Source of the DNA: Acidobacteriota bacterium
GTDB taxonomy: Bacteria; Acidobacteriota; JAAYUB01
NCBI GenBank assembly: GCA_016935015.1
Contig: JAFGRT010000145.1
Location: 1,713-65,712, forward strand
DNA length: 64,000 nt
Reading direction: 5' to 3'
The position numbers were made by a program, and so were the translations under genes. Position 1 is the first letter of the stretch. Every line of letters begins with the position of its first letter. The notes beneath the pieces were generated by a model, which worked only from the letters and a program-made list of their open reading frames with translations, was not told the origin of the DNA and made no database searches. Positions 58,659 to 64,000 of this stretch are shown here, piece by piece.

Positions 58659-61124
58659 CTATTCCACCGCCGGCCGGACATACTTCTCCAGCCACTGCCA
58701 GGTCTCCCACAGCATGTGCATGATGGACTCCCGCGCCAGATACCCATGGCTTTCATGGGGCAGCATCACCAGCCGGGCGGTCCCGCCCAGTCCCTTGACG
58801 GCATCGTACAGCCGCTCGCTCTGCATGGGAAACGTGCCGGAGTTGTTGTCGGCCTCGCCGTGGATCAGCAGCAGCGGCTCGTTGATCTGGTGGGCATGCA
58901 TAAAGGGGGACATGGCGAAATAGACATCCGGCGCCTCCCAGAAGTTCCGCTCCTCGGCCTGGAAACCGAAGGGCGTCAACGTCCGGTTGTAGGCGCCGCT
59001 GCGGGCGATGCCCGCCGCGAACAAGTCCGTGTGGGCCAGCAGGTTGGCCGTCATGAAGGCGCCATAGGAATGCCCACCCACGGCCATATGTCCCTTGCGG
59101 GCCACACCGCGGCGTACCACCTCCTCCACGGCGGCGGCGGCGCCTTGTTGTAACTGCCGGATGAACGTGTCGTTGGGCTCCTCCTTCGCTTCACCGACAA
59201 TGGGGATGGCCGGATCATCCAGGACGGCATAACCGGCCGCCACCCAGATGATGGGCGACCACCAGCCCACCCGGATGAAACGGTGGGGGGAGTCCGTCAC
59301 CTGGCCGGCGGCGTCGGCGCTTTTGAATTCCTGGGGATAGGCCCACATCAGCAGGGGCAGCGGGCCCTCCACTGCCGGATCATAGCCGGGCGGCAGGTAG
59401 AGGGTGGCCGTGAGATTGACCCCGTCGGCCCGCTCATAATGGATCATCTCCTTTTGCACGTCCTTGAGCTGCGGCGTGGGATGGGGGAACGCCGTAACCT
59501 GGGTCAAGCTCTCGCCTTTGAGATGGCGAAGAAAGAAGTTGGGCGGCTCCGTCACGGATTCTCGCTGGGTCAGCGCCACCAGTTTCTCCGGGTCAAGCAG
59601 GCGGACGACCTGCTCGTAGTAAGGGGCCTCGGAGCGCCAGAGGCGCCGGGTCTTCATGTCGGCCAGCGACAGGATGTCGAGGAACGGTCGGTCGCCTTCC
59701 GGGGAGGCGCCGGCGCCGCGCAGGAAAAGTGTCTGCCCTTCGTCGGTGGTGAGGAGTACCGCCTGCCCCGCCTCGTTGCGTCGCAGCAGGGGCGAACCGG
59801 GGTCGTTGTAGCGATCTTCCAGGGAGCGGTCGAACATGAGGGTCCGGTTCACATCATCGGCACCGGGTGCGAAGCGCCAGGAGCGGATGCGGCGTGTTTT
59901 CCACCACCATTCGTTGACCAGGGCCAGGTCATCCCGGCCCCACAAAACCCCACCAAAACGCATTTCCAGGGCGAGGAGCTCACGGGACTCTTCCGTGAAC
60001 GGGGCGGTCAGCGCAAACATTTTGTCCCGAACCTTCGCCTCCGTCTTGGGGTCGCCCTGGTCCTGGGCCTCCACCCAATAGACCGTGGCCGGTGCATCCG
60101 CACGCCAGCTCACCGAGCGGGGTCCCGTCGGCACGGCGTCGAAGGCGATGGGCACGTACTCCGCCAGGGGCAGATCGGCGATGAGATGAACCACGCGGCC
60201 ACTCCGGTCCCAGATCTCCGCGCGACGCGGAAAGCGGCTGAGCGGCACGGTGTACGAAAACGGCCGGTGGATGGTCTGAACCAGGATATAGAGGCCGTCG
60301 GGCGAAGGGTCAAATCCGGCATAAATGGCCGGCTTGCCCAGCGCGGTGACCTCGCCCGTCAGGTTGACGGCGGCCAGCTGGGTGGTGGTGTAGATCTCGA
60401 ACAGCGCCTCGTCATGGGGATTCTGCAGCAGATCCTGGTAGGTGCGCGCCGGCGCCTTGCGGCCGGTGGTTTCCTGAATGACCGGTCCTGCCGGGACCAG
60501 CGGCTCGGCCGGTATCTCCACCGGCTGGGCCGGCCGCAGCTTGCATATCAGGGTTTGGTTGTCGGAAACCCATTGAAACGGCGTACCGTAGGTACTGTTG
60601 AGGATGAACTCGCCCAACCGCCGGGCCCGGGCGGTGTCCATGGCGGCCAACCACAGGGTCAGTTCATCGTTTTGGAGTACGCTGAAGGCCAGGTGACGGG
60701 CGTCGGGCGACCAGTCCACGTGCTGGATGCGTGCGTCGTCGGGCAGGCCGGTGACCGGTTTTTCGTCACCGGTCCGGATGCTTTTCAGGGTGAGCCCCGA
60801 ATAGAAGCCCCGCCGGCTGGCCGTGAAGGTCCGCGGATTGATCCGCAGGCCCGCCAGGCGCAACTCCGGCTGGGCCAGCTCATCGATGGGCATCAGATTG
60901 GGACGATCCATGATCAGCAGCCAGGTATGAGTGGGATCCACGTACACCGCCGGGGTGGGCGGGGCGTCGATGATGTCCACAATGGCCGGCGGCGGCGTCT
61001 GGTACGGAAGGGAGCCGGCCGACTGGGCGGGAACGTTTTGCGTCATACTTCCTCCCAGCACCGTCAACAGGATGACTGCACCGGTAACGGCAATGGATGG
61101 ACGATTATTCCATCTTGAAATCAT
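58659..61124 (-). CDS. Secreted S9 prolyl-oligopeptidase-family peptidase (glutamyl endopeptidase-like)
   Basis: YQTPP N-terminus, beta-propeller, GGHSYG, HGEADNN, HESHGY. Confidence 0.93.
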   Translation of the reverse strand: MISRWNNRPSIAVTGAVILLTVLGGSMTQNVPAQSAGSLPYQTPPPAIVDIIDAPPTPAVYVDPTHTWLLIMDRPNLMPIDELAQPELRLAGLRINPRTFTASRRGFYSGLTLKSIRTGDEKPVTGLPDDARIQHVDWSPDARHLAFSVLQNDELTLWLAAMDTARARRLGEFILNSTYGTPFQWVSDNQTLICKLRPAQPVEIPAEPLVPAGPVIQETTGRKAPARTYQDLLQNPHDEALFEIYTTTQLAAVNLTGEVTALGKPAIYAGFDPSPDGLYILVQTIHRPFSYTVPLSRFPRRAEIWDRSGRVVHLIADLPLAEYVPIAFDAVPTGPRSVSWRADAPATVYWVEAQDQGDPKTEAKVRDKMFALTAPFTEESRELLALEMRFGGVLWGRDDLALVNEWWWKTRRIRSWRFAPGADDVNRTLMFDRSLEDRYNDPGSPLLRRNEAGQAVLLTTDEGQTLFLRGAGASPEGDRPFLDILSLADMKTRRLWRSEAPYYEQVVRLLDPEKLVALTQRESVTEPPNFFLRHLKGESLTQVTAFPHPTPQLKDVQKEMIHYERADGVNLTATLYLPPGYDPAVEGPLPLLMWAYPQEFKSADAAGQVTDSPHRFIRVGWWSPIIWVAAGYAVLDDPAIPIVGEAKEEPNDTFIRQLQQGAAAAVEEVVRRGVARKGHMAVGGHSYGAFMTANLLAHTDLFAAGIARSGAYNRTLTPFGFQAEERNFWEAPDVYFAMSPFMHAHQINEPLLLIHGEADNNSGTFPMQSERLYDAVKGLGGTARLVMLPHESHGYLARESIMHMLWETWQWLEKYVRPAVE

Positions 61125-61270
61125 AGAATTTACCTCCAGATGTTTGACGGTGATGCGAATATATCACAGCGGTTCGTTTCACTGCCATGACGGTTGTCCC
61201 GTCTCGGGCGGGCGGCTCCGTCCGGAAATGGTGGCGGGATGAGCACCGGGTGTAGGCCGGAGCGGGGAAA

Positions 61271-61495
61271 TCAGTCTTCGGTGGCCGGCGGGGTGGACGA
61301 CGCTTGCCCCCCGGCGGAAGGAGTGGCGGATTTCTGACCGGAGGTGACGGCCCAGCCGATGACGGCACCGAACAATACACCCATGACCGGGTGCGCCGCC
61401 AGCCCTCAGGTGCTGCCGGTACAACTGGATGCCAGGTAGAGCCCGTAGCCACCGCCGGCCCCCAGCAGCAAACCCAGAATTCTCTTGAAGTACAT
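61271..61495 (-). CDS. Probable small membrane selenoprotein (DUF6132-like, CxxxxU), 74 aa with TGA readthrough
   Basis: MYFKRILGLLLGAGGGYGLYLASSCTGST-U-GLAAHPVMGVLFGAVIGWAVTSG...; in-frame TGA at 61406-61408 between two TM helices; SECIS-like hairpin follows. Confidence 0.7.
61377..61394 (-). promoter_or_regulatory. Putative bacterial SECIS element
   Basis: GCACCCG-GUCA-UGGGUGU hairpin beginning 12 nt after the UGA; loop starts with GU. Confidence 0.6.
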
Positions 61496-61784
61496 TTTCA
61501 CCGGTTCTCTTCCTTTCCGTCACATCCATCATACCAGCCGACGGCCGGCAGAACAATTTTTTCTGATGATGAAAATCCGCGAAGTGATTCCGATTCCGGC
61601 ACGTCGCGGAAAAAAACTGAAACCTTCGGCGGGGTGATGGATTAGACACTCGGACAGGCCGTCGGAGAGGCAAAGTGTATTCAGCACAGAACGTTTTCTT
61701 GAAAATTATCATCAGATTGCATAGACTGCGAAAGGCGCGCTCCGGCCGCCCGTCTCGTATTCCAGATCCGTAACGGAGGGACTC

Positions 61785-64000
61785 ATGAATTTGTCCAGTT
61801 GGCATATACCGCCAGTTCGGCGGACCGGCAGCCGGCGATCGATCCGGCCGGCCGTGATCGGGTTGCTGGTTATGCTGGGATTATCCACCGCGGTGATGGC
61901 CCAGATCAGCCAGGGCGGCACCCCGTACAGCTTTCAGAAAAACCTGACCTCGCCCGTGGATACCATCACCCTGCCCCGGGTGGACACCCAGGCCTTGCTG
62001 GCCGAGGACGAGGTGGAGGCGACCCTGGGCCTTCCCTTCCGCTTCGGCTATCCCCACGAGGTGGACCTGGGCCTGGACAACGCCGGCACCTGGGAGGAGC
62101 TGCCCGACGGCGGCCTGCTGTGGCGCCTGCGCCTGGTCTGCCCTGACGCCTACTCCATCAACCTGATTTTTTCGGAATACGATCTGCCGGCCGGCGCCGC
62201 GCTCTTCCTCTACGACGACGAAAATCGAACCCTGCTGGGATCGTTTACCCGCCGCAACAACAAGGCCCACGGCCAGTTCGCTACCGCCCCTACTTGCGGC
62301 GAGACCTGCATCCTGGAGTACTACGAGCCGCCCACCGCCGAGCAGCCCGGCCGGCTGGCCATCGCACGGGTGGTCCATGGCTACAAGAATGTCTTTTTCG
62401 GGACAACCGAGAAGGGTTTCGGCGACTCCGGCGCCTGCAACATCAACGTCAACTGTCCTGAGGGGGACGACTGGCGGGACCAGATCAATTCCGCGGGCAT
62501 GATCACCCTGGGCGGGGGGACTCGGCTCTGCTCCGGCGCCCTGGTCAACAACGTCCGCCAGGATGAGACCCCCTATTTCCTGACGGCCAACCACTGCCTC
62601 ATCGGCGACGTCAGCACCTGGGTCATCATTTTCAATTACCAGAGCCCCAGTTGCACCAACATCAACGGTTCCACCGCCGATTCCATCGCCGGCACCACCC
62701 TGGTGGCCTCCAACGCCGCCTCGGATTTCGCCCTGCTGCGGCTGAGCGAGACCCCGCCGCCGGACTACAATCCCTTCTACTCCGGCTGGTCGGCCGTGGA
62801 CACCCCCGCCGCCACCACCGTGGCCATCCACCATCCTTCGGGCGACATCAAGAAGATCTCTTTCGAAAACGACCCCGTCACGTCCTCCGACTACGAGCCG
62901 TCCCCCTATCTGGTCAATTCCCACTGGAAAGTGTGGGACTGGGATCTGGGCACCACCGAGGGCGGCTCATCCGGCTCCCCGCTCTACGATCCGTCCAAGC
63001 GCATCGTCGGCCAACTGCACGGCGGGTATGCCGCCTGCGGCAACGATCTGCCCGATTATTACGGCAAGTTTGCCATGTCGTGGAACCGTGGCGGCAGCCC
63101 CACCACCCGCCTGCGGGACTGGCTGGATCCCGACAATACGGGCGTCCTGACGCTGGACGGTTTCGGCCCCGGCACCGGTCTGCCCACCGTGACGATCACA
63201 TCACCGGCACCCCTGTCCATCGTCAGCGGTATTGTGACCATCGCGGCCACCGCCACGGACGACCAGGGCATCAGCCAGGTGGAATTTTTTATTAACAACA
63301 TCCCCCTGGGCACCGACACCACCCCGCCCTACCAGCAGGTCTGGGACACCTCCGGCTACGCCGACGGCCAGCATCAAATCAAGGCTACGGCGACCAATCT
63401 TAGCAGCGGGCAGCGCTCCACCACCATCACCGTCGTCAAGTCGGATGCCGGTTACGCCATCGTCGTGGTGGATCTGGCCTCGGACAACCAGAGCGGCACG
63501 AAAATGATCGACAGCCTCAACGCCCTGGGCTATCCGGCCGTGCAGGGCGATAGCATCACCAGCCTGGATCCGGCCCAGTATCCTCTCATGTTCGTCTGCC
63601 TGGGATATTACAGTGGCAATTATGAGCTCACCGCCGCTGACGGCACCCGTCTCCAGGCCTATCTGGATGCCGGCGGCGCCTTGTACATGGAGGGGGGCGA
63701 CACCTGGTACTATGACGATCCCACCGCCGTCCACCCGTATTTTGGCATCGAGGGGCTGTCGGACGGCACCGTCGAAAATGATCTGGGCACGGTCACCGGC
63801 CAGGCGGGCACCCCGACGGCGGGCATAAGTTTTGCCGCCGAAGGTGTGGTGACCTGGGTGGATCGGCTGGGCATCACGCCCGGCGTGACCGATGCGACGG
63901 TCATCTGGCGCTCCCAGACCAACAGCTACAGCTGCGGCATCGCCCGCGACCATGGGACCTACAAAACCATCGGCACGTCCTTCGAATTCGGCAACATTCC
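61785..64000 (+). CDS. Secreted lysyl-endopeptidase-like S1 protease with Ig-like domain; runs off the window end
   Basis: Not in the ORF track. ATG 61785 after GGAGG; signal peptide, propeptide, SGACNINVNC, CSGALVNN, LTANHC, DFALL, HHPSGD, TEGGSSGS, then a Big_7-like domain (VEFF...YQQVWDT). Confidence 0.92.
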   Translation, partial: MNLSSWHIPPVRRTGSRRSIRPAVIGLLVMLGLSTAVMAQISQGGTPYSFQKNLTSPVDTITLPRVDTQALLAEDEVEATLGLPFRFGYPHEVDLGLDNAGTWEELPDGGLLWRLRLVCPDAYSINLIFSEYDLPAGAALFLYDDENRTLLGSFTRRNNKAHGQFATAPTCGETCILEYYEPPTAEQPGRLAIARVVHGYKNVFFGTTEKGFGDSGACNINVNCPEGDDWRDQINSAGMITLGGGTRLCSGALVNNVRQDETPYFLTANHCLIGDVSTWVIIFNYQSPSCTNINGSTADSIAGTTLVASNAASDFALLRLSETPPPDYNPFYSGWSAVDTPAATTVAIHHPSGDIKKISFENDPVTSSDYEPSPYLVNSHWKVWDWDLGTTEGGSSGSPLYDPSKRIVGQLHGGYAACGNDLPDYYGKFAMSWNRGGSPTTRLRDWLDPDNTGVLTLDGFGPGTGLPTVTITSPAPLSIVSGIVTIAATATDDQGISQVEFFINNIPLGTDTTPPYQQVWDTSGYADGQHQIKATATNLSSGQRSTTITVVKSDAGYAIVVVDLASDNQSGTKMIDSLNALGYPAVQGDSITSLDPAQYPLMFVCLGYYSGNYELTAADGTRLQAYLDAGGALYMEGGDTWYYDDPTAVHPYFGIEGLSDGTVENDLGTVTGQAGTPTAGISFAAEGVVTWVDRLGITPGVTDATVIWRSQTNSYSCGIARDHGTYKTIGTSFEFGNI

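Follow-up and report, generated by a model that had tools for sequence, protein, structure and literature searches.

An apparently intergenic gap in an acidobacterial genome (G000) raises the question of whether a TGA inside a short reading frame is a stop codon or a selenocysteine (Sec) codon. In the window, by which we mean the whole 64,000-nucleotide stretch of DNA that was analyzed, the gap is bounded by an S9 peptidase gene on one side and a trypsin-like peptidase gene on the other. A sequence-only reading had proposed that it contains an unannotated selenoprotein gene of two transmembrane segments on the minus strand, running from ATG 61495-61493 through MYFKRILGLLLGAGGGYGLYLASSCTGST-TGA-GLAAHPVMGVLFGAVIGWAVTSGQKSATPSAGGQASSTPPATED to a stop TGA at 61273-61271, and the frame is found as described when the sequence is read again. 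The proposed start fares less well. The ATG at 61495 does open the frame, but it is more likely the third codon of a gene that begins with GTG. The orthologue at the metagenomic locus L062 has ATA at the position of the ATG and keeps a GTG two codons upstream (61501 in the window), and GTG 61501 lies 5 nt downstream of a AGGAAGAG box; for these reasons the gene probably starts at GTG 61501, which gives 76 codons and makes Sec residue 32 (Table 1). At the position matching the Shine-Dalgarno-like box of the window, L062 has GGGAGGG. The surroundings are the same in G000 and L062: the gene is followed after 146 nt by a same-strand gene for an 821-aa S9 peptidase and is divergent from a trypsin-like/Big_7 gene. 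No terminator-like site was found between the small gene and the S9 peptidase gene. Two metatranscriptome runs gave no match to the stretch, which counts neither for nor against transcription; the one run that contains it, from the same study, is a DNA run and may be the source of the assembly.

Table 1. Features of the candidate selenoprotein gene, in positions of the window, with the basis of each assignment.
Feature	Position	Strand	Details and basis
Whole gene	61271..61501	-	GTG start 61501-61499, 76 codons, stop TGA 61273-61271
Shine-Dalgarno-like AGGAAGAG	61507..61514	-	Direct reading; putative function
In-frame TGA, read as selenocysteine, residue 32	61406..61408	-	Alignment column
Predicted helix 1, residues 8-26, RILGLLLGAGGGYGLYLAS, glycine-rich	61424..61480	-	Uncharged hydrophobic stretch; AF2 helix 2-27, low confidence
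Loop C27-T-G-S-T-U32-G-L-A-A-H-P38 with the C-x4-U pair	61388..61423	-	Invariant columns C27, U/C32, P38
Candidate SECIS core hairpin, 18 nt	61377..61394	-	Folding; same in G000 and L062
Extended stem around the core hairpin, MFE fold	61364..61405	-	-19.1 kcal/mol for 45 nt
Predicted helix 2, residues 39-55, VMGVLFGAVIGWAVTSG, GxxxGxxxG	61337..61387	-	AF2 and charge pattern; G45 and G49 nearly invariant
C-terminal tail, Ser/Thr/Pro/Gly-rich, probably disordered	61274..61336	-	pLDDT <50, residues 56-70

The genome has a G+C content of ~63%, and numerous long spurious ORFs overlap the region, which would suit the explanation that the small frame arose by chance in GC-rich intergenic DNA, or that the true coding sequence is instead a 208-codon ORF that overlaps it in another frame (61805-61179). 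We give this explanation practically no chance. The GC content of the small frame by codon position is 0.58/0.62/0.77, the top value falling on position 3 as in the flanking genes (0.82-0.84 at that position), whereas the 208-codon ORF is flat (0.62/0.56/0.57), has no family match below E 0.03, and is split over two frames in L062. As described below, conservation and membership of a protein family speak for the small frame. Both the chance frame and the 208-codon ORF were rejected as spurious.

The family was identified by searching with the translated product. HMMER against 1.84 billion cluster representatives returned 14 matches at E ≤ 1e-3, the strongest at E 1.9e-6; 12 of these, 70-93 aa long, contain G-C-x-x-G-x-C-(P/A), every one of them (12/12) with Cys at the column of U, and the other two (P0003 and P0007) were discarded as translated tandem repeats. 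The clusters of four Cys homologues yielded a single protein name, 'hypothetical protein.' A word-index protein search, the index of which is coarse for such a short and divergent query, gave no match to the window protein at E ≤ 0.01. The expectation that Cys would stand opposite the TGA was borne out in every comparison: the U column is Cys in 14/14 Cys homologues of alignment A1 and in 24/24 of alignment A4 (30 sequences, including 24 Cys forms and 6 Sec forms), and hhalign of five Sec forms against 24 Cys-type DUF6132 proteins (99.3%, E 1.9e-20, 55 columns, 3-57) placed U on the second Cys. Columns G14, G18, C27, U/C32, and P38 are invariant in A4, and G45 and G49 nearly so, with the pair spaced C-x4-C in the Cys forms and C-x4-U in the Sec forms.

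The sequence-only reading had also named a DUF6132 motif that would put the TGA at the second Cys. The alignment consensus agrees with this motif, although the window protein itself stays under the cut-off of the Pfam model. All sequences of A1 (19/19) match PF19628 at E ≤ 0.1, the best of them at 2e-20. With 14.3 bits (E 0.032, HMM positions 9-52), the window protein does not reach the gathering cut-off of 23.2 bits, and the best Sec form, from G004, also stays under it with 22.6 bits. Because its score is under this cut-off, we file the window protein as a divergent relative or a Sec subfamily; judging from the profile comparison, it is a divergent Sec-bearing branch of DUF6132. It shares with Cys-type DUF6132 (PF19628) a length of ~57-93 aa, two glycine-rich helices, and the invariant G..G, C-x4-C, P, and GxxxG elements, but the second Cys is replaced by Sec. 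In addition, the residue after Sec is Gly (C-x-G-S-T-U-G), whereas Pro follows the second Cys in the Cys forms (C-x-x-G-x-C-P), and a C-terminal tail of ~22 residues rich in Ser, Thr, and Pro sets the Sec forms apart from Cys-type DUF6132. NCBIfam release 20, which contains the curated selenoprotein models, gave chance-level matches at most, both for the window protein and for 19 aligned relatives.

If the TGA is translated, it should be kept in relatives, and this is what was found. A protein search (U as C) through all six frames of 61 genomes of Acidobacteriota (G000 and 60 relatives) gave matches in G001, G004, G006, and G007 at E 6e-10 to 2e-8. In the sister genus g2 of the same family, all four genomes carry the gene, and each match has exactly one in-frame TGA, always in the column of the window's TGA (...LSACAGST*GITGNP...); genera g3 and g4, which account for the family's other three genomes, gave a best E value of 0.13 in the same search. 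Six of the seven loci obtained in a metagenome scan, all six on Acidobacteriota contigs, are the gene with its TGA, and among them is L062, 85-86% identical; the seventh (L068) was dropped as a 26-residue chance match. Further homologues with TGA, a search for which had been put forward as a check, do exist. They make eight distinct Sec-form proteins in two lineages with 33-40% identity between them; the TGA column is identical in all eight, none has a frameshift or a second stop, and both homology and frame continue across the TGA in both lineages. Because there are eight distinct Sec forms in two lineages at this level of identity, a sequencing error or a recent pseudogene is excluded; a read error had been named in advance as what would overturn the reading, and independent assemblies keep the TGA.

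The same data bear on the explanation that the TGA is a true stop, so that a DUF6132 gene would have decayed here, or only a 31-residue single-helix peptide would be made, with the downstream similarity as a remnant. Two genera at 33-40% identity keep both the TGA and the frame downstream of it, the eight distinct sequences are free of frameshifts and second stops, and the downstream half is the best conserved part, including the family-invariant P38 together with G45 and G49. A remnant would hardly look like this, and we regard a true stop as very improbable, even with the two points in its favor that are given below, one concerning tRNA-Sec and the other the statistics of the hairpin.

By the Pfam model, DUF6132 occurs in 33 of 401 Acidobacteriota genomes, and all matches are Cys-type except the g2 match, which has the TGA. 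Among the genomes searched, the Sec branch is limited to one family. As a separate observation, two genomes of another acidobacterial family (G043 and G058) gave Cys forms in the genome search, and the 'TAG' flagged in them is their own natural stop.

Decoding of the TGA as Sec calls for the Sec machinery, the presence of which had been put forward as a check, and most of it was found. The source genome has selA (518 bits), selB (373 bits), and two selD genes (386 and 384 bits), all above the curated cut-offs. One selD has an in-frame TGA itself, at ...RGAG-TGA-ACKLG..., and this GAG-U-ACK is what we take to be the classical Sec/Cys site. The presence of selA, selB, and a Sec-containing selD argues against a true stop. 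The part of the machinery that was not found in the 237-contig assembly is selC, the gene for tRNA-Sec, and this absence counts in favor of a true stop: the best RF01852 hit in G000 has 42.9 bits (cut-off 47) and falls on ordinary tRNAs, ARAGORN lists 42 tRNAs in the assembly and no tRNA-Sec among them, and blastn of the tRNA-Sec of G001 (g2) against G000 returned nothing. The assembly is 96.8% complete, and tRNA-Asp and tRNA-Ile are missing from it as well. Because these two are missing too and the genome is in 237 contigs, we read the missing tRNA-Sec as probably an assembly gap. Of the four g2 genomes, three have a tRNA-Sec (79.3 bits, anticodon UCA). As for a second internal control, a formate dehydrogenase with an in-frame TGA, the three PF00384 matches have no internal stop. 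Reassignment of TGA in this genome was considered and rejected from stop-codon usage: no ordinary stop codon is as frequent as TGA, at which 940 of 1643 long coding-like ORFs end, and the candidate gene itself is terminated by it, so that a reassigned code is excluded.

The hairpin GCACCCG-GUCA-UGGGUGU, which the sequence-only reading had placed 11 nt after the UGA, is indeed there, with the spacer GGGCUGGCGGC, a 7-bp stem, and a 4-nt loop. Its folding energy is good but not exceptional. The 45 nt after the UGA fold with -19.1 kcal/mol. For 3000 TGA sites drawn at random from this genome, the mean was -11.0 (sd 4.6); 5% of these sites fold equally well, and a contiguous stem of at least 7 bp occurs at 18.7% of them. 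Against dinucleotide shuffles, the window hairpin is indistinguishable (z -0.02 to -0.84). By itself it is modest evidence, and its unexceptional statistics are the second point in favor of a true stop.

The hairpin gains weight from three comparisons, namely its selD-like geometry, its identity between G000 and L062, and the strong hairpin of g2 at the same distance. Counted from the UGA, it starts at +15 with the 7-bp stem and has the loop GUCA at +22-25; for the hairpin that follows the Sec codon of this genome's selD, the corresponding values are a start at +16, a stem of 8 bp, and a GGA loop at +24-26. The UGA and the hairpin, within 44 nt, are identical in G000 and L062, with synonymous changes on either side. 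The g2 hairpin also starts at +15 and is much stronger (-28 to -35 kcal/mol, z -1.95 to -3.5). In g2, pairwise comparison of codons 1-30 gives 2-7 synonymous and 5-12 non-synonymous changes, but that of codons 32-54 only 0-1 and 0-3, respectively, and such near-frozen codons would be the pattern expected when protein and RNA structure constrain the same bases.

Bacterial SECIS elements usually differ in structure between genera, and they appear to do so here. RNAalifold found no SECIS structure common to both genera; its consensus is the g2 hairpin, 7 of the 18 pairs of which are broken by G000 and L062. Because the two genera share no single structure, covariation cannot serve as proof. An Rfam scan of 61150-61650 at E ≤ 10 gave no match. 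The arrangement resembles that of E. coli fdhF and of selD of the source genome in having an in-frame UGA with a hairpin a few nt downstream inside the ORF, and the minimal fdhF element has, like the window hairpin, an 11-nt spacer and a small apical loop starting with G. On the other hand, the fdhF and selD hairpins have no sequence similarity to that of the window, and the hairpin of the window gene differs between its two genera, which marks a further difference from fdhF and selD.

The selenoprotein reading is thus supported by the Cys column, the TGA-bearing homologues, and selA, selB, and selD. Judging from the sequence comparisons, we have little doubt that 61501-61271 on the minus strand is a real gene that gene callers have overlooked, that it encodes Sec, and that its product is of the DUF6132 type. 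In this gene, the UGA at codon 32 would be decoded as selenocysteine by SelB and tRNA-Sec, and decoding would be directed by the in-gene hairpin that starts 11 nt after it.

The predicted product consists of helix 1, the loop segment S-C-T-G-S-T-U-G-L-A-A-H-P, helix 2, and a tail, in that order. Residues 8-55 are uncharged except Arg8 at the N-terminal edge, and in all six Sec forms the loop is free of K, R, D, and E. AF2 with a 30-row alignment predicts helices at 2-27 and 38-54 and a loop at 28-37, with a mean pLDDT of 58.5, which is low confidence. The glycines follow the pattern G10xxxG14xG16GG in helix 1 and G41xxxG45xxxG49 in helix 2, and the tail has a PP(A/T) motif and an acidic end in every Sec form. 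Over 30 family members, the mean number of K+R is 2.47 at the N-terminus, 0.40 in the loop, and 2.13 in the flank after helix 2. By the positive-inside rule, this distribution suggests that both ends are cytoplasmic and that the C-x4-U loop is at or near the outer face of the inner membrane. A bacteriocin-like peptide was also considered, from the glycine zippers and one chance match (E 0.033), and was rejected, since neither a leader nor a transporter or immunity gene accompanies it and the family occurs in a thiol-redox context.

What such a protein might do was approached through the gene neighborhoods. Neighboring ORFs of at least 70 aa were considered, 103 selected ones were compared with Pfam, and the counts of small neighboring genes are therefore lower bounds. 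At 27 of the 30 acidobacterial loci with Cys forms (L096-L098 were left out), which are mostly from one family (f31) and hence not independent, an AcrB-type RND pump gene was found in 21, with the DUF6132 gene directly after it. A YgaP-like_TM (DUF2892) gene was found in 11 of the 27, thioredoxin was adjacent in seven, including one fusion, cytochrome bd subunit I was found in seven, rhodanese in five, OsmC in four, an HtrA-like Trypsin_2-PDZ protein in three, and an S41 protease in two. The fusion (L090, in G171) joins DUF6132 to a thioredoxin with WCGPC through a linker of ~30 residues. One Cys form lies beside DUF2284, which is described as a 'predicted metal-binding protein.' The Sec forms differ from Cys-type DUF6132 in that thioredoxin, rhodanese, and pump neighbors are absent. 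The g2 loci lie between tRNA genes, tRNA-Ala(GGC) in 4/4 and tRNA-Leu(CAG) in 3/4, and neither at these loci nor in G000 was a redox neighbor of the Sec form found. Because the Sec forms are without redox neighbors, any functional statement about them is borrowed from the Cys forms.

With this in mind, a redox or thiol function is proposed because the Cys forms adjoin, or are fused to, thioredoxin and adjoin rhodanese. Sec/Cys pairs usually mark redox-active cysteines, and Sec normally takes the place of cysteines that are catalytically active and mostly redox in function. A 2026 review (PMC13188914) says the same of the cysteines that Sec replaces, and it states that most uncharacterized selenoproteins probably serve redox functions. 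In the proposed mechanism, the C27-x4-U32 pair would sit in the short uncharged loop between the helices and alternate between a selenylsulfide and the thiol/selenol, thus forming a membrane-bound site for redox reactions or for accepting sulfane sulfur. The pair would be recycled by the thioredoxin system, and selenium would make it a faster nucleophile than the Cys-Cys forms. From the context of the Cys forms and the use of Sec, we give about an even chance to a membrane Cys/Sec pair of this kind, redox or sulfane-accepting, serviced by thioredoxin.

The main alternative accepts the selenoprotein but lets the C-x4-U loop bind or pass a soft metal or metalloid with no redox cycling, the ligand being Hg, Cu, Cd, As, or selenide/sulfide itself, as for the Cys pairs of MerT and MerF. 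We consider it possible, though on the unlikely side. The AcrB-type RND pump gene that directly precedes the Cys form at 21 of 27 loci and the one Cys form beside DUF2284 would fit it, and glycine-zipper helices, which are typical of small oligomeric membrane proteins, count for it as well. The catalog of PMC13188914 has several metal-handling selenoproteins, among them a putative mercuric transport protein (C/SxxU), a cation ATPase, and a Cu/Zn efflux transporter. Against this, the most specific partners of the Cys forms, namely thioredoxin (including the fusion), rhodanese, and OsmC, point to thiol/persulfide chemistry, and neither a metal-sensing regulator nor a metal ATPase is adjacent to the Sec forms. 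The selenoproteins of the MerT family, MerF, and MerE remind us of the window protein in that they, too, are short, sit in the membrane, and carry a Cys/Sec pair close to the end of a helix, but the window protein has no homology to these mercury-system proteins (no PF02411 match in Pfam and NCBIfam scans), its spacing is C-x4-U, and its context is not a mer operon. Metal and redox roles can overlap.

The thioredoxin-serviced redox pair can be extended to a more specific model, which we put forward as doubtful: DUF6132 may be a minimal two-helix membrane relay of thiol/selenol groups, a stripped-down functional analogue of CcdA/DsbD. According to this model, a cytoplasmic thioredoxin, which in one acidobacterium is fused to the protein, would reduce the buried pair, Cys-Cys or Cys-Sec, at the hairpin tip. 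At the outer membrane face, this pair would then pass on reducing equivalents or, alternatively, take up sulfane sulfur or selenium. The stand-alone Sec form of anaerobic Acidobacteriota would then be the high-reactivity version. As in the CcdA/DsbD relays, a membrane-embedded Cys pair is tied to thioredoxin, in the case of DUF6132 by adjacency and one fusion, but homology to them is not detectable, and DUF6132 is limited to two helices with a single Cys pair. Electron transfer across the membrane by DUF6132 is speculation.

A full-text literature search on DUF6132 returned no relevant paper. In Table 1 of PMC13188914, with its 119 selenoprotein families and subfamilies, PF19628, 6132, and CxxxxU have no occurrence, and the seven DUF entries of that table are families other than DUF6132. 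The available portions of the deep-Sep paper and of Haft's 2022 preprint do not mention DUF6132; the groundwater-MAG study of Deng et al., which PMC13188914 cites, might list the family. The present candidate would add a tiny membrane-embedded family of uncharacterized function to the bacterial selenoproteins, an incremental gain, as it is one more beside >110. Since a Cys that gives way to Sec is nearly always a chemically active one, the Sec/Cys pair marks the second Cys in the loop of DUF6132 as the probable working residue, and experimenters gain a precise residue to test in an uncharacterized family that travels with thioredoxin, rhodanese, and an efflux pump. For annotation, the consequence is that the standard procedure overlooks an entire putative small-protein gene at 61501-61271. 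It was also observed that gene callers split the Sec forms.

The genome assembly that carries the window (G000) holds two copies of selD, at C122:11663-12583 (L001) and C60:4348-5274 (L002). One copy has an in-frame TGA at its GAG-U-ACK site and is a selenoprotein in its own right, and the other lies within a stop-free open frame of 751 aa, which is probably a fusion protein carrying a Cys-type SelD domain. Only 42 tRNA genes were detected across the whole G000 assembly, and tRNA-Sec, tRNA-Asp, and tRNA-Ile were not found among them, so the tRNA set is partly unassembled.

A 208-codon ORF that overlaps the small Sec gene and the intergenic region was rejected as spurious because its codon-position GC is flat, it has no family match, and its frame is broken in L062, the metagenome locus with the closest orthologue. 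The intergenic DNA 5' of the small gene is still recognizably similar to L062 (e.g., the translated stretch PTGQIHESLRY, common to both), and a sigma-70-like site lies upstream of the gene. It is possible that this region is a promoter or regulatory region.

Features around the Sec gene (window coordinates)
Feature	Position	Strand	Remark
S9 peptidase gene	58659-61124	-	flanks Sec gene
208-codon ORF	61179-61805	-	spurious
Similarity to L062	61540-61780		intergenic
Sigma-70-like site	61732-61705	-	upstream of small gene
Trypsin-like/Big_7 gene	61785-63998	+	flanks Sec gene

An envelope protease also adjoins the Cys-form DUF6132 gene in 5 of 27 Acidobacteriota loci, mostly of family f31 (L069-L095), namely HtrA-like Trypsin_2-PDZ in three and S41 in two (L069, L074, L083, L092, and L094 altogether). 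The protease neighbors common to the Sec gene and some Cys-form loci may be a coincidence. Across L069-L095 one arrangement recurs: an AcrB-type RND pump, then YgaP-like_TM (DUF2892) and DUF6132, next either thioredoxin or a membrane rhodanese, then either OsmC or CMD, and finally cytochrome bd subunit I. In genome G171 (L090:1105-1677, minus strand), a Cys-type DUF6132 hairpin is naturally fused, through a linker rich in Ser and Pro, to a WCGPC thioredoxin domain; an AcrB-type pump gene precedes this fusion gene.

In the sister genus g2, a convergent tRNA-Ala(GGC) gene lies 3' of the Sec gene in all four loci (L024-L027) and tRNA-Leu(CAG) lies 5' of it in three (L024, L025, and L027), with a TrkA-like gene farther out, past the tRNA genes. 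The C-terminal tail of P0004, the closest Cys homologue (84 aa), is closed by a second C-x4-C (CPRGGC) followed by HEE. The Sec-form tail is of similar length and Cys-free.
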